A stretch of 64,000 nt of DNA, taken from NCBI GenBank assembly GCA_049671145.1, contig JBATUM010000185.1:1828-65827 (forward strand), read 5' to 3'. Under the pieces are notes generated by a model, which was not told the origin of the DNA, did not search any database, and saw nothing but the letters and a program-made list of their open reading frames with translations. The translations under genes and the position numbers were made by a program. Positions 33,101-56,803 of this stretch are shown here, one piece after another (the first letter of the stretch is position 1; every line of letters begins with the position of its first letter). The stretch comes from Promethearchaeia archaeon (GTDB lineage Archaea; Asgardarchaeota; Lokiarchaeia; Sigyniarchaeales; SOKP01).

Positions 33101-36100
33101 GCCACTAAATTTGACTATCCTATTACTAAAGTTACAATTGAAGGGTTTTCACCTACTTATGGTCCTTATGGTCTGCTTGTAGTTGATGAAGAACCCTTAT
33201 TTGAGGTAGAGCTTGATACATATGACTACAAGTTGATAGGAGGTAATTTGTATTTCCTTCAAAGTATTAATACCATAGCGGCACAGAAGGATCCAGACTT
33301 CAATAATAAAATTTCCACCATCCAAAGTATGGACAGAGAGTTCTATTACAGAGTTAATATATTTTTCAATACCATTGTGCCCTATGACAGTTCCCGTGTG
33401 TATGATGATGAATTTACTCAATCTAGCAGACCAGCTCAGGTGTTATATGAATATGTGGATACTGAAGCCGATGATTTAGGCAAGTTAGCACTAGCTCAAT
33501 TGATTTCCTTGAGTATTGGCAATTATCTTGAAGTATTTACGTTAGCAACAGCAACCGCAGAATATCATACCGAGCAAAGATATACGACTGATATCACCTT
33601 ACAATCTACTCTTATCACTTCACTTGCACTTGCCCCCATGACCATAGCTAATTTGTACGGATCATTCTCGAGCTCAGTTTTGGCTGAGCTTTCCGAGGAG
33701 GCTGGAGAGGAGATTACAAAATTGACAACCCAACAAGCGTTAATATGTTTGGCTAAAGCTTCTGCTGTTGTGTTAGCGAGCATTCCCACTTCAGTTCTTA
33801 AGGAAGTCTATGAAGAATTATATATCGATACGTGGATTGAGCATACTACTGATAGAATTGTTACTGCACTTGGCGGAGATGAGGGAGCTGCATCATGGTG
33901 GTCAACTTTTATCTGTTCTTTTAGAGAGGCATTTCTCGGATGGTTTAGTGATGTAAATATTGGTTCTGGAGCTGATTCCCAAGTTACCACCGAAACTACT
34001 CAAACCACAGGCACTCCTACCTATGCTGATATGGGATTGAATGCCGCGTGGGATTTAATTCAAAACACAGAGCAGGCCCTTCAAAATATTGAAGTTGCTA
34101 TACAACAAGGACGGAAAGTAGCTTCTAAAGGAATTTTAAGCTCTTTAGTCGATACTGATTCTATTCTGGCTCTTCTCTTATCTATACCAGGATTAATAGT
34201 AGGCGGTTTTGGGTTAGGAGCTCTTTCACTGCTAGGTTCTGCTAGTATGGATATGATTCATGCCCAGATCCAGAAGAATGTAGCAAGAAAATGGGTTAGC
34301 GCATATGAAAGTATACAAGAGAATATGCAGCAGAGTTTGGATGGGTTAATAGAACAAGAGATTGCCCGACCGAAGATCAAAACTTTAGATCTTGAAGTTT
34401 TCAACTATCCAACGGTAGGATATACCCCAGAAATTGGGAGGCAATTAACCCAAAACTATCTTACTCCTGCACAAATCATTGATCAAACTAATACACTTAT
34501 AGCAGATACAGAAAAGACATTAGCAGAGATAGAGTCTCGGTATGAAATTCAGAAAGAAAATATTGAACAACAATTAGAAGTTTTAAAAGAAATGGTAAAT
34601 TCAGAGTCCGTTTCCAATGAAAATCCCTTTGAAATTTTTGTAGCAGAAGCTGCTGTGAAAGCTGATCCTGTTTATGAAGTAAATGGCATGAGAATATGGA
34701 TTCAACCGCTTCCTGCTGAGCATTATAACTTAGATCATGATATGACATTGAATGAATTTTTAGCTTTAATAGACATCTTAAATGATCCTTCAAAACAAGC
34801 GGTATTCAATGGTTTTATTCTCCAACATGGGACAGAAATTCTCACCGCACAAGGGATCATTCGATTAGATGGAAATATGCCCCTTTCTCAAGCATTAGAC
34901 CTTATTGGATATGATCGAAATAATTTGGAAGATCAATTTAATAGGTTAGCTCCTTGTATTCAAATAATTGACACAACTACACTCCTACAATTACAAGATG
35001 ATATATCGAATCTATTCAATCCTGATGCAAGAGAAGCAATTTTTTATCGAAATAGTATTTCTGACTATCAACGAAGTTATTTTTATTATAAATTTTTAAA
35101 AGTTTATCAAATACAACAATCTGAAATAAAAAACACATTTAATAAACCGATATATGAAGTAATCTATAGTAGGCTAGTGAATAGCTTACCAACGGATATT
35201 GAATTTACACTAGAGGCGTGGAAGCAAGAAGTTGATGATAAAGCAAAACAAGAAGGAAAAATTACAGATGAATTTAGATATATTGTTGACCTATGCCTTA
35301 AAGAAGTAATTTTACTTAATTTGATCGAACTCTCAGGTGCGAACGAAATTGACATAAATGAAATATTTAACTCATTGGATAACTACTTAGAAAATAATTT
35401 GGATGCCCTTATTGAAAAGTTATCTGATCCCAAAAATTTCGCATTACTCTTAGCTGAAGTCAAAAACAAGATCATTGACAACCTCGCACAAGATGACTTA
35501 TCAGTGTTTTTAGCCCTTACTCACCGATACTTTGATTCCATAAACCCGAATCCAAGTCAACTAAATCTGTTGGATGAGCAATTTCAAAATATCCTAATAT
35601 TAAAAGATTTATCTACTATAGCTGAAGATAATAATGTTCGTAATGAAATTAATTTTCTGTCCGATTTTATCTACCGATTACTCAATATTTACTCTGAAAC
35701 TGCTATTTTAGAGGGTTTAAATGATTTACCTGTACCAGGAGATAAAAGAGAAGGAAATGATTTTATAAATAAATTCTTAAATATGCAGGGTCCTAATAGT
35801 GAAATCCAGTACTCCATAAATCACCTCAGAAATATGTTCACAGCATTAGGATTAAATAATGACCTTTTGAAAGAGATGCTTTTAGATCAAAAATCTTTCT
35901 TTAGGGTTTTACGTCAAAAAATTCAACAAGCTAGCCAAAATCAAGATTTAGATCAAGAAGTTAGAAATATATTCAATAATATTGAAACAAACTTAGGAGA
36001 TTTAGATTTCAATGGAAATGATGGATTCACGAGTGATGAAGAGATGCTTTTAAAGATTTTAGATGAAGAACTTAATAATCTTTTTGGATATGTTGGTTAT

Positions 36101-37033: not shown

Positions 37034-37504
37034 ATGGAAATAATAGTAAAAAAGGTAAGAACAGGAGCAGAATATGAAGGCAAAATTGCAAATTTTTGGA
37101 TTTTAGGGCAATTAAAAGATTCCTCATGTATATGGATCTTTGACAGTAAGGCATATGATTTAAGGAAACACATAAACAACAATGTTGAATGTTTAATTTT
37201 AGCTTTTTTAGTGAATCTTACTCAAAAAGATTATAAGCAAGATAACAAAGAATCAATAACTAATATAATTAGTGGAAATTTTATTAAATCTGCTCTAATA
37301 ACATCAGACTGGAAGTTGCCATGGAATTATAAAGAAAAGCACTTTGCGGCATTAAACACAAATAATGGTTTGGTTTTATTGGATTGGGCAGATCTTGAGA
37401 CAATACCTATTCGAGAAAACATCGAAATTAAATTTCAAGAGCTAGATGAATTAAAATTATATGTACAACGATTCGATTTGGTAGCTTGGCATCCAATTGA
37501 ATAA
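37034..37504 (+). CDS. Putative immunity protein 1 (AWHPIE family, 156 aa)
   Basis: It starts 60 nt after the giant ORF stop and is preceded by a TAGGAGCG Shine-Dalgarno-like sequence. No TM segment or signal peptide is visible. It is paralogous to 38503-38985 and to the remnant at 41297-41536, and its C-terminus reads VQRFDLVAWHPIE. Confidence 0.6.
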   Translation: MEIIVKKVRTGAEYEGKIANFWILGQLKDSSCIWIFDSKAYDLRKHINNNVECLILAFLVNLTQKDYKQDNKESITNIISGNFIKSALITSDWKLPWNYKEKHFAALNTNNGLVLLDWADLETIPIRENIEIKFQELDELKLYVQRFDLVAWHPIE

Positions 37505-37590: not shown

Positions 37591-37941
37591 GTGGATCTAA
37601 TGGTAAGATTAAATCAAGAATTTGATGAGCCAATAAGTGAAAGTATGTCAGGATTTTTAGTAGATATAATTGACAAAATAGATGAAATTACTGAACAAAA
37701 CCCTGATCAAATAATAAATGATTATCTGGCAAAATATTATGAAAGAAGGAAGCCAGTAGAACATTCTTTTAGTGATGATTTAATTGAAATTGTCAAAAAT
37801 GATATTATACTCAATATAATAGAAGTGAATACAGAAAAATTTGAAAATGTTAGTCAACCTGTAATGAATAAATTAATTGTGTTTTTCAAAGATTTTTTTA
37901 TAGATGAATTCCATAAATACAAAAACATTGAAATAAGTTAA
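37591..37941 (+). CDS. Hypothetical acidic protein; possibly a decayed pre-toxin linker of the orphan cassette
   Basis: GTG start, 116 aa. Its end overlaps, in another frame, the point where CT2 homology begins (37937). KNDIILNIIEVNTEKF weakly resembles KNPLYHININDIFTKQF in the giant protein. Confidence 0.35.
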   Translation: MDLMVRLNQEFDEPISESMSGFLVDIIDKIDEITEQNPDQIINDYLAKYYERRKPVEHSFSDDLIEIVKNDIILNIIEVNTEKFENVSQPVMNKLIVFFKDFFIDEFHKYKNIEIS

Positions 37942-38494
37942 TTTCTTTAGATCATCTCATTCATGGAATTTAGAATTAATTTATGAATTAAGAGGAAATG
38001 GTGTAACTTTTGATATTGCAAAAACAATAGGTCTAGCAAGAGAAGGTCGAGAAATCATAGAATTACCTGATGGCTCCTTTGCAATTAGTGGAAGGGAAAG
38101 TAGGGTTACATGGCTAGAATTAGGAAATCAATTTGGTGGTATGGAACATATTCTGTATGATACATTTATATTTGGCTCTTACGCTCCACACCCTACGCAT
38201 TTAGGCCATCTTGGGGATTTTGCAAAGTATGGTTATGATACAAAAGAAGAAATTGCTGAATTAATATTAAAAACAATCCATGAAAATGATTATTATATGT
38301 ATCTTGGTAGACATACTTATAGAATTGAGACTAAATCAGGTGAAACTATATATATAGGAATTATTATATCATCAAATGGATATATAATTAATGCCCATCC
38401 TTGGGATCGGGATCAGGATGATATTGATAATTTAAATAAAATCTTTCAGGAGATTGATGATTATTTCAATTTTAAATTATTTAATAATTGGTGA
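37937..38494 (+). pseudogene. Orphan CT2 cassette (start-less copy of the giant protein's C-terminal about 185 aa)
   Basis: The frame opens right after a stop at 37934-37936 and translates to VNFFRSSHSWNLELIYELRGNGVTFDIAKTIGLAREGREIIELPDGSFAISGRESRVTWLELGNQFGGMEHILYD..., collinear with giant residues VNFFRLSQ...EHILYD. The first ATG is internal, at 38141. Confidence 0.75.
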
Positions 38495-38502
38495 ATATTT
38501 TT

Positions 38503-38985
38503 ATGAAAGTTTTCTTAGAAAAAGTAAATATTGGGACTGAATCAGAGGGAGTAATATATGAATTCCTAATTCATGGTCGATTAAATAGTAATCAAATTAT
38601 ATATATTCATGATGACGCTGCGAAATTTGATCTTCGAAATTTTGAGAATCAGGTAGTTGAAATTCTTTTAGTAGCACATAATATTTCCCTTAAAACCACT
38701 TCAAGGAGACCTGATACTCAATTAATAGATAGGGAACTTAGAGTTATTAAAGGCAACTATCTTGGAAGATATGTTCTCCCTAATGAATGGCATGATTCGA
38801 AATATTTTCATAATGAGAGATCCTATAAGTATTGGCATCATCTTGATCTTCATGCGATTAAAGCGGAAAATGGAATATTTATAATTACGAATGAGAATGC
38901 TGAAAAGTTACCCATTGAAAAAGGAGAAAAAAGCTATTTCTATGTTGATAGTTTTTATATGATTGCATGGCATCCAATTGAATAA
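38503..38985 (+). CDS. Putative immunity protein 2 (AWHPIE family)
   Basis: An ATG at 38503 lies 8 nt after the CT2 stop (the track's TTG at 38488 is less likely). The N-terminus MKVFLEKVNIGTESEG parallels MEIIVKKVRTGAEYEG, and the C-terminus reads VDSFYMIAWHPIE. Confidence 0.6.
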   Translation: MKVFLEKVNIGTESEGVIYEFLIHGRLNSNQIIYIHDDAAKFDLRNFENQVVEILLVAHNISLKTTSRRPDTQLIDRELRVIKGNYLGRYVLPNEWHDSKYFHNERSYKYWHHLDLHAIKAENGIFIITNENAEKLPIEKGEKSYFYVDSFYMIAWHPIE

Positions 38986-39024: not shown

Positions 39025-39078
39025 AAATAATTTCTATAGACATTTTCTCCCTCCCCCATGGTGCCCCTGTTGAAAAAG
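39025..39078 (+). repeat. GC-rich direct repeat, copy A
   Basis: AAATAATTTCTA...CTCCCTCCCCCATGGTGCCCCTGTTGAAAAAG. Its partner at 46563-46628 shares the AAATA(A/G)TTTCTA, CTCCCTCCCC, TGGTGCCCC and TGAAAAAG blocks. Confidence 0.6.
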
Positions 39079-39328
39079 AAGATTAAAGATTTTCTTCACA
39101 TCTAAAGATGAAAACATACGAAATAATAATCATTTTGAAGACACTATCTGTTGAAAAGACCAATTTCTCCCTAATATGATCCCACTTCGTGTGGGATGAA
39201 AACTTTCTATTCGTGAGGAAAGTTGTTGTCTCCACTATGTGCGTTAATATCTTCCACCCAAATTCTAATAATCATTCTAAATTTTACATATCAAAATATT
39301 TAAATACTCTATTTTATCTAATATAGTA

Positions 39329-39353
39329 AAGAGATATATTTTTTATATCTCTT
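39329..39353 (+). promoter_or_regulatory. Perfect 10-bp inverted repeat immediately upstream of the ORF at 39359
   Basis: AAGAGATATA-TTTTT-TATATCTCTT ends 5 nt before the ATG at 39359. It could be an operator or a 5' hairpin. Confidence 0.3.
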
Positions 39354-39358
39354 CAAAA

Positions 39359-39634
39359 ATGAAAGAAAATTTTAATTGTCAACGGAAAAATAATGTAAAT
39401 CAAGGCGTATTGCATAATTACAGATTAATTTTAGAAGGGATTATACGCTTTGAACATGAGAAATCTATTCTTTTTGAACTTAGAAAGAATAAAGAATCCT
39501 ATATTTCTTTTAAGATTAAAAAAATAGTAGCAGATATTAAATCAATCACCTTTAATGAGTGGCAGATCAAGAAAGAAAACTTCTATAACAAATTAAAAAT
39601 CAATGAAATAGGGAGAGTGCCATGGAGATCTTAA
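39359..39634 (+). CDS. Hypothetical small protein (91 aa), translationally coupled to the helicase-like gene
   Basis: The ORF overlaps the next start by 13 nt. No recognisable motif. Confidence 0.4.
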   Translation: MKENFNCQRKNNVNQGVLHNYRLILEGIIRFEHEKSILFELRKNKESYISFKIKKIVADIKSITFNEWQIKKENFYNKLKINEIGRVPWRS

Positions 39635-41094
39635 AAGTTAATTCAGAAGAATTAGTTAGATATCCTGTTAAAAATTTCATTGGAAAGGGAACTTTTAATA
39701 ATAAAAGTTCTGGAACGGGTAAAACTTGGAAGAGTTATGAAATTATAGACTATGGAATAGAACATCAAATGCTCATGATGATTTGCTTACCGACTCATGA
39801 TAATATAAAGGAATTTATAAAGAGAATGAATAACCATAGGGATAATGCAATTCAGTTAAAGGGTAAAATGAAATATTGCAAGTTAAGAAATAAAGTCAAT
39901 GCTTACTTGATCGGATGTACAACATGTAAACATCAAAGAAAATGTCGATATATAAAGCAATTTTCAATAGCAAAAGATAAACAGATTATATTCATAGTTC
40001 CACATCATCTACATTTGGTTCGTGAATTTAATCCAGACATTCTTATAATCGATGAAAGTATAGAAAAACAAGCTCATAAAGGAATAAAAATTCCAGAAAG
40101 GGTAAATCCGAATAATTATTTAGTACAAGCGAATTGTAATACCTGTCCATTTAGTAATAAGTGTTCAGATCAGCGTAAGAGGTTTAAAAGAAACCACGGT
40201 TGTTATTTTACGTTATACAAAACCCTTAATTTGGATGATTTTGAACCAGAATCTTTAGAAGAATATTTTTTCAAATATAATTATGAAAATTTAGACAATA
40301 TATTTGCTGTTGAAGATAATAGTAGAAATCACGTTATTATCGGAGATACACCTCTAGATTTCTTAAATCAAGTCAATACTCTTATTTTCAATTGTGCTAC
40401 AACAAGAATTTCAATTGCAGAGAAAATATTTCAACGGAAGTTCGATATTGTAATATTAGATGAAGAAAAATTAGAGAATAGGATATTTTTACTAGATGAT
40501 CTAATGACAAAGAAGAAAACTAAAGTAGAATTAACTAATGCTGAGAAATATTTTGAAGTACTGAATATCCCATTAGGAGATAAGACGTTGATCTATACTA
40601 AAAAAGAATTTGAAGAATATTTTAAAAAGAAATTTCCTAAAGTAAAAACAGGTCATTATGGTGATAGCAGGGGTTATAACAAGTTTGAAGAATGTGAAAA
40701 TGTTATTATATTTGGAAGATACGGACTAACACCAGCAGTTCAAATGTTATTGGAATTAAGAGGGTATAAATCAAGAGAAATACACTGGTTTGAAAAAGCA
40801 GAGGAACTTCAAGCTATGCATAGAATTCGACCGATAAGAGATAAAAATAAAATGATTTATTTATTATCAAATTCTCTTAAAGAAGTTGTTGAACCAACAG
40901 ATTACATTAATTTGAATAGTTTAAAAATTGGTTTCGAAATCCTTAACGGAGATTATGAAGGTATGACGAAAACTGAGATATATGAAAAAGTTAAGGGAAA
41001 CATAAAAGATAAAATAAGAGCTATCGATACATTACAAAACACAGGCAAAATAGGAGATATGACAGGGAGGGGCAAGAAATTACAGAAGATATAA
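39622..41094 (+). CDS. P-loop NTPase, divergent XPD/DinG-like SF2 helicase with Cys clusters
   Basis: Walker A is SSGTGKTW and the Walker B/DExx-like motif is ILIIDESIE. A CATT motif-III-like element and QAMHRIRPIR (motif VI-like) are present. The cluster C-x12-C-x2-C-x5-C (CKLRN...CTTCKHQRKC) sits between motifs Ia and II, as in XPD Fe-S helicases. A second cluster reads CNTCPFSNKC. Confidence 0.45.
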   Translation: MEILKVNSEELVRYPVKNFIGKGTFNNKSSGTGKTWKSYEIIDYGIEHQMLMMICLPTHDNIKEFIKRMNNHRDNAIQLKGKMKYCKLRNKVNAYLIGCTTCKHQRKCRYIKQFSIAKDKQIIFIVPHHLHLVREFNPDILIIDESIEKQAHKGIKIPERVNPNNYLVQANCNTCPFSNKCSDQRKRFKRNHGCYFTLYKTLNLDDFEPESLEEYFFKYNYENLDNIFAVEDNSRNHVIIGDTPLDFLNQVNTLIFNCATTRISIAEKIFQRKFDIVILDEEKLENRIFLLDDLMTKKKTKVELTNAEKYFEVLNIPLGDKTLIYTKKEFEEYFKKKFPKVKTGHYGDSRGYNKFEECENVIIFGRYGLTPAVQMLLELRGYKSREIHWFEKAEELQAMHRIRPIRDKNKMIYLLSNSLKEVVEPTDYINLNSLKIGFEILNGDYEGMTKTEIYEKVKGNIKDKIRAIDTLQNTGKIGDMTGRGKKLQKI

Positions 41095-41250
41095 TCGAGC
41101 TTTCGTAATTACTGCTATTTTCCAAATCCTCTTCTTTATTATATATAGGGGGAAAAATAACAGATGTCCAAGCCCTTTTTTCTTTTTTTGTTCAAAATAT
41201 TAACAAAAAACTATTAAACTCTTTTTTAAAAGCAGTTTTCATCAAAAAAG

Positions 41251-41294
41251 TATCATCAATTCACAGACCAACATATCATCAATTCACAGACCAA
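41251..41294 (+). repeat. Tandem duplication (two 21-nt copies, 23-nt period)
   Basis: TATCATCAATTCACAGACCAA occurs at 41251-41271 and again at 41274-41294. The duplication lies exactly at the 5' break of the immunity-gene remnant. Confidence 0.85.
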
Positions 41295-41296
41295 AT

Positions 41297-41536
41297 GTAA
41301 TTCAAGGTATTTACATAAATAATTATGAAATACCAATAAAATGGAAAGACTACGATAAATTTTATTCAGAAAGATCTATTGCAATAAAAACTAATGAGGG
41401 TTTTTTTTTATTAGACGCATCTGATGTTAAAAAAATGTCAATTCGGGGAAAAAAAGAAATTAAATTAAAGGAAGGTCAAAAAATTACTCTTTATGTTGGG
41501 AGGTTTGATCTACATGCTTGGTATCCACTAGAATAA
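41297..41536 (+). pseudogene. 5'-truncated remnant of a third AWHPIE-family immunity gene
   Basis: It translates to VIQGIYINNYEIPIKWKDYDKFYSERSIAIKTNEGFFLLDASDVKKMSIRGKKEIKLKEGQKITLYVGRFDLHAWYPLE*. This is collinear with the C-terminal halves of the two intact paralogs. No in-frame start lies upstream. Confidence 0.7.
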
Positions 41537-41866
41537 TTATTAATTTTTAATTCAATTCCATTCACATTATAATCTCTCTATTTAAAGGTAAACTAATTTA
41601 GCCAAGCCGGCTTAATAGGGTAATATCTTAGAAGCTAGTTGTATAAAAAATATCTATGTTTCTGATCTTAATGTAGAGTAGTTAAACCAACTCCTGGTTA
41701 AATACGAGTTTCATAATGATTTGAATGAACTCTTAACCATCAATGCAGAGCGTCAAATCCTGCATAATATCCAAGATTTTTCCAGAGCATTTTTACACAT
41801 GTATGAGTTGTAACCTTAATATTAATTTTAAGTCCGCAGGGAGATAACCTTGATGGATTCTTAGAT

Positions 41867-44800
41867 TTGCTATGGGACAATTTATTGAGCATGGGAGCCT
41901 CTGATCCTGACGTATTTGTTGCTCTTGATTTTGATGACCTAAACTTAGATTATTTCTTAATGACTAGTGAGCTACCTGCTTATAATTTTAGACCGGGATA
42001 TTCATACCCAAATACCAATAATCTCGATAACGTATATCATACATATGCGGTTAATACATTAGGTTACGTGGAATATCTAGTACAACACTCCTCAAATAAT
42101 CAATTTGACACAATTCGCCCAGTATGTAAAGATGGAAGACCTCAATATGAATTTGTGGAGCGCGATAGCTACGATAAAGTGCTCCCGCAATCAGTTCTTT
42201 ACCAACCAATCGTATTAGATCAATATCGATTTAGCCAGCTCAGACCTCAGCTTGGTCATCTTATCGTAAATGTACAGTGTAGACCTCATGATTATAATAA
42301 TTCTATTGGTATTAACCCTTATGTGATGAATGCAGTCGAGGCAGATGTATATAAAGCCAAAATTCCACTCTTTCAGCATGAGTTTGATTATCCCGTGCAG
42401 AATGTTTACATCGATATTGTAAAAAGTAATCCTGAATATGAAAACGGAATACTCTCAAATTTGAATTTGAAATATCTTGCCCAAGACATTTATGTAAATG
42501 AATCATATTATGCATTTGAGCAAGGACAGCTCTACTTCACTGCCCCAATTGAGACCTTAATTACTCAAAAATATCCCCATTATAGGACCGCACTAAAGGA
42601 TATATGGCGGATAGAAGGTATGAATTCCAAGGTATACTATCGCCTCCATGTCTATTTTGATGTTTTTGTTCCTGATCTTACAGAAGAGACTCATAGATTA
42701 GCACTAGCCCAAGCATCTTCCTATGCAATTATGGATTATTTCAATCAATACACTTACGCTGAAGTCACAGCGAATATGATTTCTGAAATTGCTTATACTG
42801 AGACAGTAACCTTCTGGTCCACTATTATTAGCGCTCCTATGATGATGTTTGGTTCATACCTCGTAGAGGGTTTAGAAGAGGGGATAGCACGAGCAGGAGT
42901 GCAAATGGCGTTGACCACGCTTACCGCTCCGATAAAGGAAGTATTCCAAGAAATTATTATGGATGGATTTATAGAGGCATTCGCCGAGAATTTTGCGGAT
43001 ATAATGGGCTGGTCTGACGATGTTGGATATTGGCTCTCTGCTTTAGCAACCTCAGGTCGAGAAACTTTGTTGGGTCCCTTAGGAAAATTAACTTGGGGAA
43101 AGATTCGAGAAATGACTAAGTTGGACCTTGAGATAAAAAACACCGTTAAATTAATGCAGCAGGCAACTCAATCTCAAGATACCGATACTGCCAATAAACT
43201 TCGTCAGACATTAGAAGATCTATACCGACAACAAAGTGAAGCTAGACAACAGAAAGAACAGGAGAAAAAGACATGGAAAAAATTACTTGCCTCTGACTTT
43301 TTCAAGGGAGTTCTAATGACTATTCCATCTGCCTTTATTGGTGGATTTAACATATTTTCTTTCATGGGAATGCAAAATATGCTCTCAGGTACGTTGAGCC
43401 ATATTAATATAAAGACATTTTCTAAGATACGAGCGGTACAACAAGCGTCCAGAAGAGGAAAATTACAGCACATTCTTGATGAATACGGAATTGAGGGTGA
43501 TGTCCTTTCCAGAAATATCGAAAGCAACTTGAAACAGCCTACCGATATTGATGGAGAAGCGCTACATAATTTATTTAAAGAACAGAATGAAGAAGACCTT
43601 CCGGGAGTAAAGAATACTATAGTGTTTAACCCCAATCCTAAGGCTGCTAAAACTGTGGAAAAAATTAATATACCGAATAAGTTTGAGGAGATCCGATTAG
43701 CAAATTGGGTTGATGAATTAACAAAAGATTATAAATTTGAGGATAAGAAGAAAATCTCTGACCAAGTAAGTAAGACGACAAATAATGTTGAAGAGACTGA
43801 ACTTAAGTCTGACATCATGATCGGGGATCTATATGAAGGCTTATTTTACCAATTTAATAAAATTCGAATAGGGAATCTCTATCATGAATTTTATGCCACT
43901 GGAACTTTGCAAACCGATGGTAAGAAAGTCTCGAAATTACTCTATTCTAAGCAATTGATAACCGATGCGATTATTATGCTCAGTTCCACTAAATATAAAG
44001 GAGTCCCAATTATCATAGACCAAGAAATCAACTTCATAGTTCTAGAAGCTATTATAGCTAAAATAAAAGAAGGACACACGATCACCCAGCTTGAGAGAAT
44101 AATAATGGACATTGGCATCTTTATTGAAGGAAGATACGATATTATTGGAAAGGTAAATTCAGCGTCTGATTTCAATGAAAAATTCTTTGAAAAAACGAAG
44201 CGGAATGTAAAGAAACTTGGAATTCTAAAAGTAATAGGGAGATCGATGTTTGGCAAATTAAAACCAGGTGCTAAAGTTGCTTATGAGATTAAGAACGAGG
44301 GAGAAGTGTATAATGTAGATGATATTATTGTATTTTATCGGGATGGAGTGAAAATTGTCCATCGGGTTGAATATATATTCGAATCCAATGGTGAAATCTT
44401 CTATGTAACCGAGGGTGTGAATTCCGATACTAATCCATATGTAGATAGTGATCTTGTTTCCAACGATCAAGTTATTGGAAGAGTCACTGAGATGTCTGAA
44501 CAAGATTTATCCGCTCTTATAGAAATGGCAGAACAAGGGAAGGTCCCCTCTATTGAGGGTTTAGGAATGTCGAATGCTTTAGAAAAAGTCTATCAATCAC
44601 TATACAAAACAAGCAAAAGCCTTAGAAATATGAGGGATAATCCTATAGGCTTAACTAGGGAACAACTATTAGATTTTGTCATAAATAAAATTTCTGAGAT
44701 AAATGTAGAAGCTTTTACAGATATAGATAAAGTAAAGGAAGCAAGAATAAGAATATTAACTACATGTTATGAAATGATTGAAAGGAATATCTATTCTTGG

Positions 44801-45658
44801 TTTAGTAAAGACTTAAGTAAAAAAATGATTACTTATCTGTATAAAGAATTTATTTACCCTAGTGGCAAATCTACACATCCAGTTAGTTCAGATTATTTTA
44901 TAGACCAAGTACTCATCTTGGGTGAAGTTCTCAAAAGCTTGAATAATTATTACGAGCCAGAGACATTTAAGGAAAATCTAAAAGCTCTTCTCAATAGCAG
45001 AGAGTTTCGTTCTTATAATAATTTAGGTGGTTCTCAAAAGCAAGAATTCATTAATAACCTAATTAAAAATGTATGGAAAAATTCATATGAAAGTTTATGT
45101 TTAGAATTACTTTACAAAGAATTCACATACCAAGGTAAGGAAGCATTATATTACAAACCAGAAGATGTGCTTATTGAGAAAACGACTTGTACAACTGTTT
45201 TAAAAAGTCCTGGAGATAACTTTTTCCAACCTACTGAAATTTATCTAACTTTTGGTGAACATGAATTTAAATTTGATAAACGTGCTGGAAATGGTATAAT
45301 ACATATTTTTGCAGGACATTGGGCTGATTTCGCTAGATTACATCCTGATCTTAATACTCCTGAAGCCATAGCAAAATTCATATTTGAACTAATTAAGTCT
45401 CAGAAGGGAGTCGTTATGGAAGATGGAGGTAAAATAGTATATGCATTCCGATTTAAAGGGGAACAAAAAGTCCGTTATGTAGAACTTTTAGTTGATGATG
45501 GAGGACCAATGGGTCCAGAAGGTAGATTACATACAGCATATCCAGTAGATCTTACAAAATCCAAATATAAAGATAAATATATAGAATACAGAAATTATTT
45601 TATAAGACATTCAAATCTAATTCAAAATGATATAGACTTAAAAAATATACTAGTATAA
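41867..45658 (+). CDS. 5'-truncated paralog (orphan module) of the giant gene's 3' end, with a distinct CT3 domain
   Basis: The 1,263-codon ORF has only a TTG start. Its first about 500 aa are collinear with giant residues encoded at about 32520-34290. Decayed, frame-broken homology continues upstream (41700-41866). The C-terminus carries a third variant of the CT domain. Confidence 0.7.
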   Translation: MLWDNLLSMGASDPDVFVALDFDDLNLDYFLMTSELPAYNFRPGYSYPNTNNLDNVYHTYAVNTLGYVEYLVQHSSNNQFDTIRPVCKDGRPQYEFVERDSYDKVLPQSVLYQPIVLDQYRFSQLRPQLGHLIVNVQCRPHDYNNSIGINPYVMNAVEADVYKAKIPLFQHEFDYPVQNVYIDIVKSNPEYENGILSNLNLKYLAQDIYVNESYYAFEQGQLYFTAPIETLITQKYPHYRTALKDIWRIEGMNSKVYYRLHVYFDVFVPDLTEETHRLALAQASSYAIMDYFNQYTYAEVTANMISEIAYTETVTFWSTIISAPMMMFGSYLVEGLEEGIARAGVQMALTTLTAPIKEVFQEIIMDGFIEAFAENFADIMGWSDDVGYWLSALATSGRETLLGPLGKLTWGKIREMTKLDLEIKNTVKLMQQATQSQDTDTANKLRQTLEDLYRQQSEARQQKEQEKKTWKKLLASDFFKGVLMTIPSAFIGGFNIFSFMGMQNMLSGTLSHINIKTFSKIRAVQQASRRGKLQHILDEYGIEGDVLSRNIESNLKQPTDIDGEALHNLFKEQNEEDLPGVKNTIVFNPNPKAAKTVEKINIPNKFEEIRLANWVDELTKDYKFEDKKKISDQVSKTTNNVEETELKSDIMIGDLYEGLFYQFNKIRIGNLYHEFYATGTLQTDGKKVSKLLYSKQLITDAIIMLSSTKYKGVPIIIDQEINFIVLEAIIAKIKEGHTITQLERIIMDIGIFIEGRYDIIGKVNSASDFNEKFFEKTKRNVKKLGILKVIGRSMFGKLKPGAKVAYEIKNEGEVYNVDDIIVFYRDGVKIVHRVEYIFESNGEIFYVTEGVNSDTNPYVDSDLVSNDQVIGRVTEMSEQDLSALIEMAEQGKVPSIEGLGMSNALEKVYQSLYKTSKSLRNMRDNPIGLTREQLLDFVINKISEINVEAFTDIDKVKEARIRILTTCYEMIERNIYSWFSKDLSKKMITYLYKEFIYPSGKSTHPVSSDYFIDQVLILGEVLKSLNNYYEPETFKENLKALLNSREFRSYNNLGGSQKQEFINNLIKNVWKNSYESLCLELLYKEFTYQGKEALYYKPEDVLIEKTTCTTVLKSPGDNFFQPTEIYLTFGEHEFKFDKRAGNGIIHIFAGHWADFARLHPDLNTPEAIAKFIFELIKSQKGVVMEDGGKIVYAFRFKGEQKVRYVELLVDDGGPMGPEGRLHTAYPVDLTKSKYKDKYIEYRNYFIRHSNLIQNDIDLKNILV
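44237..44494 (+). other. Sec11/S26B signal-peptidase-like (S24/S26 fold) domain embedded in the orphan module
   Basis: The boxes occur in the canonical order: GRSMFG (box B, Ser), DDIIVF (box C), KIVHRV (box D, His), VTEGVNSDTNPYVD (box E, diverged from TKGDNNxxxD), then QVIGRV. Confidence 0.55.
45265..45655 (+). other. CT3 putative toxin domain (divergent member of the CT1/CT2 family)
   Basis: FKFDKRAGNGIIHIFAGHW...PEAIAKFIFELIKSQ...EGRLHTAYPVD aligns with CT1 FWLELGNQFSGFEHILYD...REDIATLILNTIKTQ...SNGYIISAYPQ. Confidence 0.5.
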
Positions 45659-45728: not shown

Positions 45729-46568
45729 ATGGGTTTTTATAAAATAGACGGAAAAAAATATGAGGTAAAAAAAGATTATATCAATCTATATGAATGTGGA
45801 TTAAATTTAATTCGTGATATTATTGGTTTAGACCAACTGGTAAATTTAAGAGCTTTATTGTTAGAACGTAACAATATTAGTGATATCGAAGGATTGGAAA
45901 ACCTTATAAATTTAAAAATTTTAAACTTAGAGGATAATCATATTAATGAGATTAAGGGATTAGAGAAACTTACAAATTTAGAGACATTGAAATTGAATAT
46001 TAATTCAATAAGTAAAATAGAACAAATTGAAAATTTAACGAATTTAATAGAATTAAACTTAAGTTCAAACAATATTAAAATAATAGAAGGACTTACGAAA
46101 TTGATAAAATTAGAAAAATTATCTTTGGCAAATAATCAAATTTCCAAAATTTCTGGTTTAAATTCGTTAAAAAATCTCTCTCTATTAACTTTAGATTCTA
46201 ATAAAATCACAAAAATAGAGAATCTACCCATATCAAAAAAATTAGAATCTTTAAGTTTAGGTGATAATAAAATCACTGAAATTTCTGGCTTAGATAATTA
46301 CAGGAATTTGATACTTTTATATTTAAGAAATAATAAGATTAGTGAAATTACGGGTTTAAAATCTCAGAATAATTTGGAATATCTTGATTTAAGCAATAAT
46401 AATATTAAAGAGTTAAAGGGATTAGAGAGGATGACAAAATTAACTCAATTAGAATTTGGTGGAAATTTAATAGATCCTAATTTGATTGAAAAATTAGGTG
46501 GTTTAGATAGAAGTGGATGTGCATTACAACCTCAAAAGTTTGTTGAATATTGTAGAAAAAATAAATAG
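45729..46568 (+). CDS. Leucine-rich repeat protein (about ten 22-aa LRRs, SDS22/internalin-like)
   Basis: The unit LxxLxxLxLxxNxIxxIxGLxx repeats regularly, for example LENLINLKILNLEDNHINEIKG and LEKLTNLETLKLNINSISKIEQ. No TM segment or signal peptide is visible. Confidence 0.85.
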   Translation: MGFYKIDGKKYEVKKDYINLYECGLNLIRDIIGLDQLVNLRALLLERNNISDIEGLENLINLKILNLEDNHINEIKGLEKLTNLETLKLNINSISKIEQIENLTNLIELNLSSNNIKIIEGLTKLIKLEKLSLANNQISKISGLNSLKNLSLLTLDSNKITKIENLPISKKLESLSLGDNKITEISGLDNYRNLILLYLRNNKISEITGLKSQNNLEYLDLSNNNIKELKGLERMTKLTQLEFGGNLIDPNLIEKLGGLDRSGCALQPQKFVEYCRKNK

Positions 46569-46628
46569 TTTCTAATTAAACTTTCTTTCCTTTACCTCCC
46601 TCCCCTGTGGTGCCCCCTCCTGAAAAAG
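46563..46628 (+). repeat. GC-rich direct repeat, copy B
   Basis: AAATAGTTTCTA...CTCCCTCCCCTGTGGTGCCCCCTCCTGAAAAAG. It is the partner of copy A at 39025-39078. Confidence 0.6.
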
Positions 46629-46725: not shown

Positions 46726-47316
46726 ATGACTAAAAATATTGATTTACATACCCAACTTGTATTGAAGTTATTAAATGGGTTAAATTCTAAACCGATAGAT
46801 GGAAAAATAAAATTCCAAAAGATAGCTTTCTTGGTTTTAAGGAATTTTGAAGAGATATTTGAGTTTTTTGATTTCAAAGCTCATAGATTTGGTCCTTATA
46901 GTGAATCTTTGAATTATACTTTAGAAGAAGTTAAGAACAAGGAAGAAGCACAAATAGAGAAAGATACAATAAAAATTACTGAAAATGGGAGAAAAAAATT
47001 AAATGAATTAGAATCCATTACAGAGTTAAGCGAGAAAGAGAAGAAAAATAAGGAATTAATTGAAAAAGCAATTGAAAATATAAAGGAAGACTTTATCAAT
47101 TTCACCAGTGATGAGATGTTAGCTTTTATTTATAAAAGTTATCCTAACTACATAAGTGATTCTATTGTAGCCGATAAAATGGACTATGAGAAAATATTTC
47201 TTGAGTTATATGATAAAGGTGAATTAGGAATATCAAAAATTGCTGAGTTAATGGACTGGGAGTTTCAAGATGCATACGATTTTATAAAAAAGAACACCAA
47301 GTTACAAATCTTATGA
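46726..47316 (+). CDS. Putative antitoxin (C-terminal UPF0175-like HTH; N-terminal Panacea/DUF4065-like region)
   Basis: The C-terminus GELGISKIAELMDWEFQDAYDFIKKN resembles the UPF0175 HTH that partners with PIN toxins. The N-terminus KFQKIAFLVL...FKAHRFGPYSESL resembles the Panacea pattern. The stop overlaps the PIN gene start (ATGA). Confidence 0.45.
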   Translation: MTKNIDLHTQLVLKLLNGLNSKPIDGKIKFQKIAFLVLRNFEEIFEFFDFKAHRFGPYSESLNYTLEEVKNKEEAQIEKDTIKITENGRKKLNELESITELSEKEKKNKELIEKAIENIKEDFINFTSDEMLAFIYKSYPNYISDSIVADKMDYEKIFLELYDKGELGISKIAELMDWEFQDAYDFIKKNTKLQIL

Positions 47317-47804
47317 TAGTAACAAAACTCTTTGATACAGTCGTTTTAATAAATATTCTCCAAGATATTGATATTGAAGATATATTACTCAACTGGGGTG
47401 AAAATCCTAGCTATGACCAATGGACTTCTTATGAGGTAAACCTAGAAGTTCAGAAGAAAGCAAGAATCAAGCTTGATAAATTGATTACTGATAATGTTAT
47501 AAGAATCTTCAATCAAGCACCTCAGAATAATCTTAAACAAATTCAAGGTTTTAACCCTAAATTATCAATAGCTGACTGTTCTCTAATATATCACTATACA
47601 AGGGTAAATAACGTTATATGTTTAACAAATGATTTAGACCTTAGAAAGTATTTCATTAAAAACAATTTTAGGTTATCAGGGACTAATGGGATTTATTTAA
47701 AAGTACTAAAAGATGGTAATTTTCCCAAAGATATCATTGAAGAAAAATTTAAAGATTTAAAAAACGACTCTCGGGTGTTTCCGCAACCTGAAATTAATAA
47801 CTAA
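47313..47804 (+). CDS. PIN-domain toxin (VapC/DUF3368-like)
   Basis: An N-terminal Asp is present in LFDTVVLINIL. Later acidic positions occur in IADCSLIYHY and ICLTNDLDLRKY (the T-x-D motif). The 4-nt start/stop overlap with the upstream gene is typical of TA pairs. Confidence 0.6.
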   Translation: MIVTKLFDTVVLINILQDIDIEDILLNWGENPSYDQWTSYEVNLEVQKKARIKLDKLITDNVIRIFNQAPQNNLKQIQGFNPKLSIADCSLIYHYTRVNNVICLTNDLDLRKYFIKNNFRLSGTNGIYLKVLKDGNFPKDIIEEKFKDLKNDSRVFPQPEINN

Positions 47805-50892: not shown

Positions 50893-53800
50893 TTGTTTAA
50901 TATGAGTTTAAAATATAGCGATTATCTGAAAAACAAAAAAAACGATAAAAAATATAATGAATCTCGTTTTGAAGATGAGGGTGATAATTCTGATTATTTA
51001 GATATTTGGACGGTAAATCCTTTTTATAAAGATATTAATACTAAAAAGTTAAGAGCCAAAATAGGCTTTTTTGCAATTTTAATCTTAGCAACATCGTTTC
51101 TAATTCTATCTCTCTTTTCTAAAATTAATTACTTAATAGGAGCAATAGCTTTCCTTCTAGTATTGCTATTTTATGAAAATATCTTTAACTTTTTCAACAA
51201 CCTCTTTACAAGCGTTCAGGGATTGAAGTGGATCAATCCATATAAAGATTTGATATTCTGGACAAATGATCCTGAAACCCTTGTAATGGTAAATAAGAAA
51301 AATTCGTTGGTATTTGCAATTCAAATATTTGAAGTTAAAACCTTGCCTGAGAATGTCCATCCTACTTTAAATCATTTTCTTAAAGCACTAAACAATGCAA
51401 ATATTAAATACTCGTATCAGGTCGTACAAACTCCATTGATGTATCAAAAACTCAAAATAAAGAAAATTAGTAATAATGAAACTTCAATTTATTTTAGTGT
51501 ATTTGATCAGAGAAAAGGCATTTTAACTAAAAGCAAAATTGATAATTTAGTTCAAACTGTACGGTTTAACTCAAAAATATTCAAGTCTCATCTTAGTTCG
51601 AATTTTCATCATACACAAATCTCCTTATTAAGCGGGCTTAATTTAATTAACGCGATTAGAGCAATTTTTTGTGGAATTAATCTTGATAAAATAGAGTTTA
51701 GAGACCTTAACAATGAGCATTCTAAAAACAATGTTCGTTACATAGTAAAATTAATAGTTATAGCTCTTTTTATAGGATTAGTATCTTATTTTTCAACGTA
51801 TTTTTCACTTCCTTGGATATTCATACTCTTATTAGATATTATAATCATAATGGCGCTCATTTTCATTTGGTGGGAAGATTTGTTATATTCTATTTCAAGG
51901 GTTTGTTTTCTTAATAATATAAACGTAAAATCTGTTGATCCCTTCATAGATATTAATTTTTATCGAATGAAAGGGTGTAGAGATACGCTTTTTCTTCTCT
52001 TAGATGATCACTTATTAATTGGACTCAAACAATTTAGCTTAAAACATGCGATTCAGAAATGCTTTATATATTCCGAGAAACTTTTCCGAGAGCTGAATAA
52101 TCAGAAAATAACTTTTATTTATACTCTTCAGGCTATACCTTTATTACCTAGCGATTTTAGCAAAAAATGTTCTAAATTTCTAAATGAAAAAGGATATTCA
52201 GATATGAAAAGAATATTTGGGGAAACAGTGCTTGGTGGAACATCTACTCCTCCAGCTAAAAATGCCCCCCTAGTGTTTAAAAATTGGTTAAACATGAGAT
52301 CAGGGATTTGGAACACAATTTTAACAGTGTCAGTATTATCATATCATTTTATTAATCCAAGAGATATTAGCCATTTTGAGGATGTAGAGGAAGACCTAAT
52401 AAGTAAGTCTGAAATTATGCTAAGGGCATTTGAGGACAATTTTCTCAATCTTAAATTAACTCAATTGAGAAATCATAAACTAATTAATGGATATCGATTT
52501 GTGTCTCTTAAAAATAGTTTATTCAAGGCAAAGAACACAGGTTTACCTTGTGTATATTTCCAAGGAAAGACCTTAATATATCTAAATGCTATTTCAAATG
52601 AATTTAAAAAAGGATTAGAAACCAAAATCGCTGCAGAATTTAATACTCCCCTCCATTTGAAAAATGATATTATTATAGGAGAAACCATCAATACTGAGTT
52701 CTTAGAAAAAGAAGGTGAATTAGGCTTTAAACTTGAGCAGGTAAAGCAACTACTAATTACTAATGGGCTTTCTGAGCAAAGAGAACACACAATGATGAAG
52801 ATTGTAACGGAACTTATAAAGATAGGAATACCATGTGTGATATTTGATTATTCAGGAAAGTGGTCGAAACTAATCAGTAATTTTAAAAATACGTACTTAG
52901 AAGAGACCTTTTTATATTTCAAATTAGGACGCTCATTTAGCCTGTATTTAATAGATTCAGAAGAAGATTATGATAAACATAACTTAGAATATTTAAACTT
53001 ATTTTACGATGTATTTGCGTTAGCCTTTAAGGAACAAAGAAAAAGTGTTGATCTTCTCAAAGAATCTGTAACAAAAAATAAGGAAATTGATATAAGCACA
53101 CTTGCTTTAGAGCATGAAATGGAAGAACAACTCTTTAAAAAAAATAATTATAATAGTTTGCTTGAGCTTTTACAGGGATTTATTGATTGGAGAGCTTTAT
53201 TTTCATCTAGATCGTTAAAATTTGAACAAGAAATTAAACCTATTGATTTTCTTAAAATTGATAAAACGATCATCATTGATTTATCTTTATTAGAAGAATT
53301 GAAACAAAAAAATTTCAGTACCTTTGTTCTCTTATCCAAATTCATACATCATCTTAGAAATGTAAATGATTTTCACAGAAAAGTTATTATTATTCCTCAT
53401 ATCGATCTTTTTTTTGATGCATATTACATTGATAATTACAATATGGTTGATTATGGTACAATCGAAAAGTTTTTAGATCCATTTCTTGACAATGGATTTG
53501 GGCTAATTTGTTCAGCAAATCAAATACGATATCTGCATTCTCATGTGTTTACCTACTTTCCAAATATCATTACATTTAAAGCTACGGATCCTCGAGATAT
53601 TGCGGTGTTAAAAAACACAATAAATTTGCAAGAATTACAAGGAACAGGTTATTATAGTTCAAAACGAAATAATACATACCAAATTGATTATCTTATGAAT
53701 TTGCGAAAAAATGAAGTCATTGTAAAAAGATCTGATATTAATCAACCATTTCCGGGAGAAATTAATTACGATCAACTCCAATTAACCCCTCTCCTTTCAC

Positions 53801-54717: not shown

Positions 54718-54825
54718 AATCAAGTTTTTTATTTAAATATCCCTAAAATATTAACTTTTAAAACAAAATTCGAGGTGGTTTAGATCGAACCAGAATTTTG
54801 GCATGGAGTAGTAAAAATTACTCAA

Positions 54826-56772: not shown

Positions 56773-56803
56773 TTATAGGAGGGAGGGAATCTGAATTAGT
56801 GAA

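Follow-up and report, generated by a model that had tools for sequence, protein, structure and literature searches.

A 5'-truncated, probable orphan cassette of a predicted polymorphic toxin system behind a giant gene in an Asgard archaeon

A 64-kb window of a Promethearchaeia genome (by window we mean the whole stretch of DNA analysed, 64,000 nucleotides of contig JBATUM010000185.1) contains a giant gene and, starting 4.9 kb beyond its end, a long ORF (41867-45658) resembling the 3' end of that gene without its 5' body. What is this orphan ORF: a spare copy of the giant gene's tip that could be swapped into it, as originally predicted, a gene in its own right, or a relic? All features described here lie on the forward strand, and positions are those of the window. 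The giant gene (101-36973; 12,290 aa) is a full-length member of its family. Its product has a cluster of transmembrane (TM) segments at aa 636-879 and a TM helix at aa 10689-10716; the conserved module spans aa ~10570-11383, and the protein ends in a toxin domain (aa 12128-12290, nt 36482-36970). Pfam searches covering aa 1-8000 and 10701-12290 found LamG as the sole match in the former part and nothing in the latter.

We compared the orphan ORF with the giant protein. By blastp, orphan aa 8-505 matched giant aa 10805-11383 (nt ~32513-34249) in a single collinear alignment with 29% identity (E = 2e-52), and nothing past orphan aa 505 was significantly similar to the giant protein. Tblastn agreed (41888-43381, E = 6e-53). 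Collinearity over about 500 aa followed by divergence, as put forward in the original prediction, is thus seen with both programs, and the peptides quoted there lie where they had been placed. The prediction had also described decayed, frame-shifted homology further upstream, with HNIQDFSRAF matching the giant's ENINGHPSAF at identical spacing. HNIQDFSRAF is genuine sequence (41763-41792, frame +2 relative to the orphan ORF), but its resemblance to the giant did not rise above chance. With 48 closer homologues as tblastn queries, no match at E ≤ 1 was found upstream of 41822, and a profile HMM built on the part of the family upstream, which is strongly conserved, found nothing. A frameshift-tolerant profile alignment scored 19.6, against 18.4 ± 2.9 in dinucleotide shuffles (83 of 300 reached the score); when collinearity was enforced with the correct anchor, the observed score was reached by 150-664 of 1000 shuffles. 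Nor was the spacing identical, being 137 nt versus 132 nt to the downstream anchor and 50 nt versus 69 nt to the nearer YTGQ anchor.

Homology does continue upstream in the orphan's own frame, which is open and homologous for 45-54 nt before the TTG at 41867, from 41813/41822. The peptide encoded there, TLILILSPQGDNLDGFLDLLWDN, corresponds to YTGQLLVSPP...FDGFLDLLWEN in the family. Since this in-frame homology is closed by a TGA (41804-41806), the 5' edge of the orphan (41804-41866) is sharp rather than gradually decayed; of the earlier claim, truncation holds and decay does not. NCBI places the start at ATG 41891, the codon of a Met that the family conserves within the module. Longer members have, ahead of the module, a strongly conserved region made up of a TM segment and "HPGGYYTTVSGGEPGN" (TM/HPGGYY), and this is missing from the orphan. 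These comparisons support the view that the orphan ORF is the C-terminal portion of a member of the giant-gene family, cut off at its 5' end and without a conserved start of its own.

The resident giant gene is not its closest relative. Orphan aa 1-~650 had 48 Asgard homologues (30-47% identity), and the module is nearer to genes of other genomes (41-47%) than to the resident gene (29-36% at the protein level and 49.9% in codon-aligned DNA). Consequently, the idea of a displaced copy of the giant's 3' end has to be narrowed: the orphan comes from the C-terminal part of this family, and it is not a recent copy of the gene next to it. In most of the 48 homologues, the alignment to the orphan stops at aa ~505-650, and there are family pairs whose modules are 60-77% identical and whose tails, 400-900 aa on both sides, are then unrelated (unaligned). 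Many homologues are also truncated, at a dozen different points of the module, and there too homology extends slightly upstream of the called starts. Several of these stand alone in a housekeeping neighbourhood where no full-length gene lies within 10 kb (L001-L003, L060, L061), a situation that fits stand-alone function as well as orphan status. As judged from the sequences, body and module constitute an Asgard-only family without a Pfam domain.

The orphan begins with the pre-toxin module (41867-43816, aa 1-~650), of which aa 8-505 are shared with the giant protein and aa 505-650 with most other members. It includes a hydrophobic segment (aa 473-500). An alpha/beta domain is also predicted in it with confidence, and a fold search of the PDB returned no match for that domain. 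Pfam found no domain in the orphan, and the ORF has neither a signal sequence nor an N-terminal anchor. Further along is a domain resembling signal peptidase I of the archaeal/ER type, S26B (44222-44494, aa ~786-876), matched by TIGR02228 (E = 1.8e-11) and SipW (E = 7.6e-10); the corresponding PHROG match is to the S24 part of CI repressors. The TIGR02228 score (44.1 bits, model positions 34-121 of 158) lies below the curated equivalog cut-off of 51.85, and by sequence this is not the housekeeping enzyme but a homologue of it that forms one domain of a 1,263-aa protein. Its Ser-Met and His, in GRSM and IVHRV, are invariant across 16 family members. By analogy with Sec11-type enzymes, we take the Ser of the GxSM box as the catalytic residue and the His of the IxHR-type box as the general base.

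The ORF ends in a predicted BECR-fold, RNase-like toxin domain (45224-45655, aa 1120-1263), homologous to the giant's tip and to a second toxin fragment in the window; the three copies align mutually, and both toxin His residues are retained in the orphan. A profile search with the domain gathered 73 proteins, almost always with the domain at the extreme C-terminus. Twelve of the 73 match PBECR1, with E-values down to 3.9e-6, and single relatives also carry DUF637 (CdiA-type), WXG100 or Peptidase_S24. The orphan's own score against PBECR1 (PF18809) is 13.6 bits (E = 0.095), below the Pfam gathering threshold of 27.6, and its assignment to that family is therefore indirect, by way of these 12 relatives. 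The predicted structure (pLDDT 87.7) has helices at 25-39 and 46-59 followed by four strands, and so resembles solved BECR toxins, where a pair of N-terminal helices packs against an antiparallel sheet of four strands. Its best PDB match was a chain of a CDI toxin complex, 7m5f_C (probability 1.0, E = 1.2e-3), a modest predicted-fold match with TM-scores of 0.42/0.50 and an rmsd of 3.4 Å over 89 columns, followed by HigB2 and the tRNase colicin D.

Directly behind the orphan lies an intact gene for a 279-aa leucine-rich repeat (LRR) protein (45729-46568; Pfam LRR_4, E = 2.7e-38). The small downstream gene co-varies with toxin type: LRR genes come after the orphan-type toxin in the window and in loci L005, L023 and L062, and after related truncated copies in L001 and L061, whereas the giant-type toxin has genes ending in AWHPIE behind it, twice in the window and also in L028. 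The one exception is P0002, which is followed by an LRR gene and has a tail different from the orphan's, so that strict co-variation of toxin and LRR gene is weakened. In L062, a 6,169-aa gene ends in the orphan-type toxin and is followed by an LRR gene; L062 then has its own 5'-truncated copy 5 kb downstream. The LRR protein is likely to be the cognate immunity protein of the orphan toxin type.

Behind the giant gene runs a partly decayed array, in which the orphan is the third unit. The giant's toxin tip is directly followed by immunity-type gene 1 (37034-37504; 156 aa, ending in AWHPIE), whose homologues in L028 and L005 likewise stand behind this type of toxin. Next is p116 (37591-37941), the 3' end of another cassette type. 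Over 331 nt (37607-37937), p116 is 95.5% identical to L041, where its counterpart ends an ORF containing a signal peptidase domain and is followed by a conserved ~38-nt element. In the second toxin fragment (37937-38494), which shows homology to giant aa 12128-12289 (40.6% identity, E = 5e-23), no start codon occurs before 38141; at its WLELGNQF.G.EHILYD motif, 50 nt are 88% identical to giant nt 36653-36702. Behind it are immunity-type gene 2 (38488-38985; 165 aa, also ending in AWHPIE), a copy of the ~38-nt element, and a block unrelated to the cassettes (39095-41094) that follows the element in other Promethearchaeota loci as well. The block comprises ~170 nt of conserved non-coding DNA (39095-39262), a 91-aa ORF (39359-39634) and a P-loop/Cys-rich protein of 490 aa (39622-41094). 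Immunity-type pseudogene 3 (41145-41536) is missing ~27 codons at its start, and a perfect tandem duplication of 23 nt (41251-41273/41274-41296) shifts its frame; removing one copy restores homology to aa 28-165 of immunity protein 2. The orphan, its LRR gene and another copy of the element complete the array.

What we observe is homology, truncation, domain content, a toxin that occurs together with its partner, and a gene in another genome whose tip consists of this toxin/LRR pair; we read these as marks of an orphan cassette. That is, the ORF and the 45-54 nt upstream of it would be such a cassette, belonging to a polymorphic toxin system that is confined to Asgard archaea (Promethearchaeota), toxicity and immunity being predicted; we give this reading a probability of about 0.72. 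Full-length members would be giant membrane-anchored surface proteins with a predicted toxin at the tip, the last 1,500-1,800 residues comprising a TM helix, the pre-toxin module and a highly variable tail with the toxin domain, and each member would be followed by a small cognate immunity gene. The orphan would retain the module from just before the folded domain, and a tail in which the Ser/His domain resembling signal peptidase may cut the toxin-bearing end free. Past recombination or horizontal transfer could have displaced this tip from the giant gene or delivered it beside the gene. The original prediction went further, seeing a silent cassette that could be swapped into the giant gene through the ~1.5-kb module, with replacement of about 900 aa including the toxin. 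The orphan does lie downstream of the giant gene, in the same orientation and collinear with it; such swapping is accepted for bacterial polymorphic toxin cassettes (PMC3482391), family pairs do combine a conserved module with unrelated tails, and the near-identity of p116 to another genome indicates that recent DNA exchange occurs in the locus. Yet the 1.5-1.8 kb of homology said to suffice for recombination has a longest identical run of 13 nt and a best 150-nt window of 64% identity, and blastn found only a 60-nt match, at 73%. Searches of a protein collection and of metagenome contigs yielded no recombinant, near-identical haplotype or donor allele: in the former, the C-terminal half of the ORF matched only the ORF itself, and the latter yielded no relative. 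With module DNA only 50% identical, the orphan should not be movable into the resident gene by homologous recombination; at the sequence level, such intragenomic recombination is already contradicted, and we consider the exchange model very improbable.

Two other explanations are to be weighed against the orphan-cassette reading. The ORF may be a functional shorter paralogue starting at ATG 41891, as annotated by NCBI. Module, helix, peptidase and toxin would then work independently, perhaps as an effector associated with the membrane or as a toxin inside the cell, and in either case the LRR protein would be the antitoxin. Its frame stays open for 3.8 kb at 33% GC while neighbouring array elements are visibly broken, and the truncation falls just before a confidently predicted domain, which is thus complete in the orphan. 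Elsewhere, intact truncated homologues of 1,000-2,200 aa stand alone amid housekeeping genes, and a small ORF lies downstream of each homologue. However, homology passes upstream of every candidate start up to the stop codon, ATG 41891 is an internal Met of the conserved module, and the missing signal sequence and N-terminal anchor also speak against independence. The "starts" of the homologues, scattered over a dozen points, many of them inside the folded domain, have the look of truncation and not of a conserved gene model. An AT-rich, TATA-like stretch at 41815-41832 could serve an independent gene, but is not discriminating, since such strings are common in intergenic DNA of 29% GC. All in all, we regard a stand-alone gene as unlikely. 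Less likely still is that the ORF is dead, a remnant of an old rearrangement in a graveyard of cassette debris, in which stops have not yet accumulated. The debris is real (the startless part of the second toxin fragment, 37937-38140, the p116 fragment, and pseudogene 3 with its duplication), the 5' body is gone, and the closest relative of the orphan tail is only ~33% identical. Against this, the ORF has no stop in 1,263 codons where composition predicts ~98 (the other two frames have 109 and 153), and the adjacent LRR gene is intact; with the peptidase Ser/His and both toxin His retained, the absence of stops points to either a very recent arrival or ongoing selection. For the orphan cassette, present value most likely lies in the retained immunity gene and/or in a reservoir that would be usable only with a closely related incoming allele.

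In the orphan cdiA-CT/cdiI and rhs-CT/rhsI modules of bacterial CDI and Rhs loci, a short identical "landing pad" is typical. As in those loci, a very large surface/toxin gene has downstream of it, oriented the same way, a 3' fragment truncated at its 5' end, with a variable toxin domain at the fragment's end and then its own candidate immunity gene. Intact units stand beside degraded ones in the array, in L062 this toxin/immunity pair makes up the tip of a full gene, and the closest structural match of the predicted toxin is a CDI toxin complex. In contrast, the host is an archaeon and there is no T5SS or T6SS context, a signal-peptidase-like domain lies upstream of the toxin, and the candidate immunity protein is an LRR protein. 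The VENN and PxxxxDPxGL motifs are absent from giant and orphan, and neither the orphan nor the giant protein (aa 1-8000 and 10701-12290) showed FHA/DUF637 or RHS features in Pfam searches. The orphan has also kept a pre-toxin module of ~650 aa, yet at about 50% nucleotide identity to the resident gene a landing pad of the CDI/Rhs type is absent here. Taken as a spare "toxin tip" with a candidate antidote gene, the orphan would be akin, in an Asgard archaeon, to the spare toxin cassettes of bacteria.

More broadly, polymorphic toxin systems were defined by Zhang, de Souza, Anantharaman, Iyer and Aravind in 2012 (PMC3482391). With them the locus shares a constant body, a releasing peptidase and a variable C-terminal toxin, as well as toxin/immunity gene pairs, cassette arrays and a BECR-fold toxin, here predicted. 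Imm-LRR is a listed immunity class, and the text nowhere uses the term "signal peptidase" (PMC3482391). According to that survey, such systems are generally absent from archaea and were acquired from bacteria (PMC3482391), whereas body and module here are confined to Asgard archaea and carry no Pfam domain. Makarova et al. (mBio, 2019) reportedly surveyed archaeal examples. In Heimdallarchaeia, Wu et al. (2022) described truncated giant-gene fragments and Aloposon elements, with no occurrence of "toxin" in their text and no toxin/immunity reading (PMC8813620). Aloposons are defined by insertion at tRNA sites together with an upstream MinD/ParA gene set (PMC8813620); ARAGORN found no tRNA gene in the 64-kb window, and there is thus no Aloposon-type insertion at a tRNA downstream of the giant gene. 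The hypervariable Ig-domain module of Thermococcales likewise combines an archaeal gene for a large surface protein with shuffled, variable downstream genes. It has been discussed as analogous to polymorphic toxin systems, and immune-like and self/non-self-recognition roles were also considered (Makarova et al. 2021, PMC8416519), but it belongs to a different protein family, whereas the tips here have a predicted toxin fold of the BECR type.

As a separate observation, the conserved element of ~38 nt recurs after toxin/immunity cassettes across Promethearchaeota. The first copy in the window (39046-39075; CTCCCTCCCCCATGGTGCCCC..TGAAAAAG) lies 60 nt 3' of immunity-type gene 2. The second (46593-46625; CTCCCTCCCCTGTGGTGCCCCCTCCTGAAAAAG) lies 25 nt 3' of the LRR gene, and a 40-nt stretch there is 92.5% identical to the copy behind the LRR gene of L001.

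The window carries a single open reading frame of 12,290 codons (101-36973), the gene for a giant surface protein with a C-terminal toxin tip, and, on the same strand 4.9 kb downstream, an ORF of 1,263 codons that begins with TTG (41867-45658), here called the orphan. Read from an ATG at 41891, the latter is on record as a 1,255-aa protein, annotated as hypothetical, on a 66-kb contig from a MAG of Asgard Promethearchaeia. In blastp, one alignment joins orphan aa 8-505 to giant aa 10805-11383 (29% identity, E 2e-52); nothing significant follows past orphan aa 505, and tblastn concurs. The orphan is a real feature, and the collinearity followed by divergence described in the original prediction is confirmed. 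The two genes share essentially no similarity at the DNA level, the best blastn match being 60 nt at 73%. When their common module (the conserved pre-toxin region, orphan aa 1 to about 650) was aligned by codons, nucleotide identity was 49.9%, the longest identical run was 13 nt and the best 150-nt window reached 64%. This identity and run length are too low for homology-driven recombination of the orphan with the resident giant gene, and the proposal that the orphan could be swapped into the expressed gene in this way is unsupported. The recombinant haplotypes that this proposal called for did not appear in a metagenome scan using the orphan's C-terminal half as the query, and searches of protein collections and metagenomes found neither a donor nor a recombinant for the orphan. 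The missing DNA identity poses a concrete question: by which route would tips be exchanged here, and does a 38-nt element described below take part?

It had also been proposed that homology to the giant continues, in decayed form, upstream of the orphan. The peptide HNIQDFSRAF is indeed present in another frame (41763-41792), but the upstream homology scores no better than shuffled controls do. Upstream of the stop at 41804-41806, nothing above such controls was obtained by tblastn with the giant and with 48 closer homologues, by a six-frame profile HMM, or by frameshift-tolerant profile alignment, both unanchored and banded. The orphan is far more similar to these 48 homologues than to the giant, and they keep a strikingly conserved stretch just before the orphan's beginning (...TFY..S....P.SLNEK.I.DR.LQDSMAAALIGHPGGYYTTVSGGEPGNQYTGQLLVSPP). 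The TGA at 41804-41806 closes the orphan frame upstream; from 41813/41822 up to the TTG this frame is homologous to the family, and the ATG called by NCBI is a conserved Met within the family module. Since homology in the orphan's own frame reaches the TTG from 41813/41822, none is found upstream of the stop and the ATG is internal to the module, the orphan is truncated at its 5' end, and the edge is sharp. Its earlier description as a displaced, truncated copy was right in kind; no support was obtained for the upstream relic or for the mechanism of homologous recombination. The 5' junctions of truncated copies in the window and in four loci from other genomes (L001-L003, L005) have no sequence in common.

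Homologues of the module were found in Loki-, Thor-, Odin- and Hermodarchaeota MAGs and in sediment metagenomes, and none contains a Pfam domain in the shared part. In the longer members the module is internal; some two dozen others are called from starts within it, at a dozen different positions. In these truncated members, as in the orphan, family homology reaches slightly upstream of the called start, and several of the other truncated copies sit alone amid housekeeping genes. Pairs of members are 60-77% identical in the module and have tails beyond it that are unrelated over hundreds of residues. A constant body that bears polymorphic tips, as here, is what characterises polymorphic toxin families. 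In the giant, a cluster of transmembrane segments (aa 636-879) is followed by about 9,800 residues, where a Pfam scan of aa 1-8000 gave one LamG match, a TM helix (aa 10689-10716) and then the module, with further hydrophobic segments. AlphaFold models the orphan module as a confidently predicted alpha/beta domain (residues ~40-320, pLDDT 80-97) with long helices after it, and no PDB fold matches the model. Searches of Pfam, PHROGs and NCBIfam with the module, the giant's last 1,590 aa, the immunity genes, a 490-aa protein encoded upstream of the orphan (p490) and the neighbours returned almost nothing except LRR, signal peptidase and a weak PBECR1.

Within the orphan's variable tail, aa ~786-876 resemble archaeal-type signal peptidase I (TIGR02228, E 1.8e-11, with a score below the equivalog cut-off; SipW, E 7.6e-10), and the region also weakly matches CI-like repressors in their S24 part. 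All of 16 family members have the Ser of a GxSM box and the His of an IxH(R) box, the Ser/His arrangement of Sec11-type enzymes. This domain precedes the toxin, a position that would suit a releasing peptidase. The last ~140 residues of the orphan align with the C-terminus of the giant and with a start-less fragment at 37937-38494 (toxin fragment 2). A profile built from these three copies retrieved 73 proteins among 1.84 billion, with the domain nearly always at the extreme C-terminus; 12 of them match Pfam PBECR1, and single members carry DUF637 (CdiA-type), WXG100 or Peptidase_S24. The modelled toxin domain (pLDDT 88) consists of two helices and a four-stranded sheet, and among PDB structures it best matches one chain from a Serratia CDI toxin complex (probability 1.0, E 1.2e-3), with HigB2 and the colicin D tRNase next. 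On the basis of the C-terminal position, the PBECR1 relatives and these fold matches, the tips are read as predicted BECR-fold RNase-type toxins. At the N-terminal edge of the giant-type toxin domain, the codons for WLELGNQF.G.EHILYD are 78-88% identical in DNA across the giant (36653-36702), toxin fragment 2 (38111-38160) and two other genomes (L028, 5702-5743; L013, 6267-6322), far above their flanks, with a longest identical run of 17 nt. This may reflect functional constraint or a junction for tip exchange.

Two candidate classes of immunity gene accompany these toxins. One small family, whose products end in ...AW(H/Y)P(I/L)E, comprises immunity genes 1 (37034-37504) and 2 (38488-38985) and pseudogene 3 (41145-41536). 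Genes 1 and 2 directly follow a giant-type toxin, and the same pairing occurs in L028. The pseudogene has no 5' end, and its frame is shifted by a perfect 23-nt tandem duplication at 41251-41296 (TATCATCAATTCACAGACCAA + 2 nt); removal of one copy restores a frame homologous to aa 28-165 of immunity gene 2. The orphan-type toxin is followed by an LRR gene (45729-46568 in the window), as it is in L005, L023 and L062, and Imm-LRR is a recognised immunity class (PMC3482391). In L062, a 6,169-aa gene ends in an orphan-type toxin, the LRR gene behind it is 48% identical to that of the window, and a separate 5'-truncated family copy lies 5 kb downstream. Judged by gene order, this layout matches that of the window, with the orphan's type of cassette in the putatively active position. 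Elsewhere in the array, 331 nt (37607-37937) are 95.5% identical to L041 (MAG contig CAZOYD010000003.1, 595-925), where they end a peptidase-containing ORF. The match begins exactly at the LNQE codons (box E of the L041 signal-peptidase domain) and stops at the stop codon, beyond which L041 continues into the 38-nt element and the window into toxin fragment 2. The edge resembles a junction formed by recombination at a short conserved motif, and such identity to another MAG means that recent exchange of pieces does occur.

The 38-nt element (consensus TATTAyC-TCCCTCCCCCGTGGTGCCCCCTCCT-rAAAAA) accounts for both GGTGCCCC strings that occur in the window, one in the copy after immunity gene 2 (39046-39075) and one in the copy after the LRR gene (46593-46625). 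A scan of 185,579 genomes located it in about 48 Promethearchaeota and Hermodarchaeota loci (among them L004-L059), at least 90% conserved and in a few copies per genome; 16 of these loci carry pieces of this toxin family. Behind the LRR gene of L001 (13944-13983) it is 92.5% identical to the window's copy, with coding DNA there at about 70%. In 28 of 45 cases a same-strand gene ends no more than 120 nt before it. Genes for LRR, immunity, PIN/ParE and truncated-toxin proteins are enriched among those that precede it, which include 8 LRR proteins and 3 immunity genes of the AWHPIE family. Pairs of elements are sometimes 0.8-2 kb apart and enclose one or two genes. On a complete Promethearchaeota chromosome (CP070831.1, 2245-5029; L056), a compact two-cassette array beside proteasome and ribosomal genes consists of a stand-alone 410-aa ORF combining the signal peptidase with a different C-terminal domain, a 184-aa partner, an element, a VapB/VapC pair and a second element. 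An RNA or tRNA fragment was rejected as the element's identity, with no Rfam match and no stable or conserved hairpin; a tRNA lies near it in only one of the 48 scanned loci (L050, ~2.8 kb away). On viral contigs, only chance matches in phage DNA of 63-65% GC were seen. Directly after the first copy in the window, a block of about 170 nt (39095-39262) is 77-85% identical in L047, L021, L057, L027 and L052 and contains a CCCAC...GTGGG hairpin; because stop codons interrupt its 50-aa minus-strand ORF in the homologues, the block has the look of conserved non-coding DNA and may encode a small RNA.

Between immunity gene 2 and pseudogene 3, the segment 39359-41094 encodes a 91-aa ORF and p490, a Cys-rich P-loop (GTGKT) protein; neither has a match in Pfam, PHROG or NCBIfam. 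p490 adjoins the truncated pseudogene and sets the orphan apart from the other members of the array. It lies ~530-550 nt past the 38-nt element in both the window and L039, and the L047 protein is 71% identical. Its 17 homologues (identity up to 84%) are all hypothetical proteins of Asgard MAGs or metagenome assemblies and none is on a viral contig; a viral or mobile-element gene was accordingly rejected.

The orphan is most likely a stored toxin/immunity cassette, which would have been either displaced from the giant or delivered beside it. Its frame is open over 1,263 codons, where about 98 stops would be expected, and the putative catalytic residues are retained, namely the peptidase Ser and His and two conserved His residues of the toxin (positions 27 and 32 of the domain alignment); as its neighbours in the array are broken, it appears to have arrived recently or to be under selection. 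That such an intact frame is independently expressed as a gene in its own right we consider unlikely, since truncation points vary among the homologues and no start is conserved.

The sober reading of the 38-nt element is a terminator-like 3' signal. A more speculative one, to which we give little credence, takes it to mark the end of cassettes mobilised by a system found just in these archaea, by which the orphan and its LRR gene would have been imported. Each cassette would then consist of one or two conflict genes and a fixed recombination site, a logic like that of integrons, and the recurrent block of the 91-aa ORF and p490 could be a helper. The orphan would have come as a mobile unit of truncated toxin, LRR gene and element instead of being displaced from the giant, and the tips of giant genes would be swapped by site-specific or microhomology joins, not by homologous recombination.

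Among bacteria, polymorphic toxins with spare cassettes are a defining feature of warfare between cells. The founding survey saw them as nearly absent from archaea and, where present, acquired from bacteria (PMC3482391). The kind of system encoded in the window is already known; the archaeal variant is new. It combines an Asgard-only 12,290-aa delivery body, whose own pre-toxin module has no PDB fold match, with a signal-peptidase-type domain at the position of a releasing peptidase, predicted BECR RNase-like tips, two candidate immunity classes and a decaying array of orphans.

Two further groups of genes lie downstream. Right after the second element, two overlapping ORFs (46726-47804) resemble a toxin-antitoxin pair, the first (196 aa) being similar to SocA/Panacea and DarG antitoxins (Pfam E 0.0025; NCBIfam DarG E 5.9e-7) and the second encoding 163 aa. 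Farther on, three large co-directional genes (50893-61603) encode a 1,274-aa membrane protein, a 648-aa P-loop ATPase with weak similarity to TraD/coupling proteins (E 5.6e-4) and a very acidic 1,599-aa protein with DYDPFSL repeats, which could together be a transfer or export apparatus.
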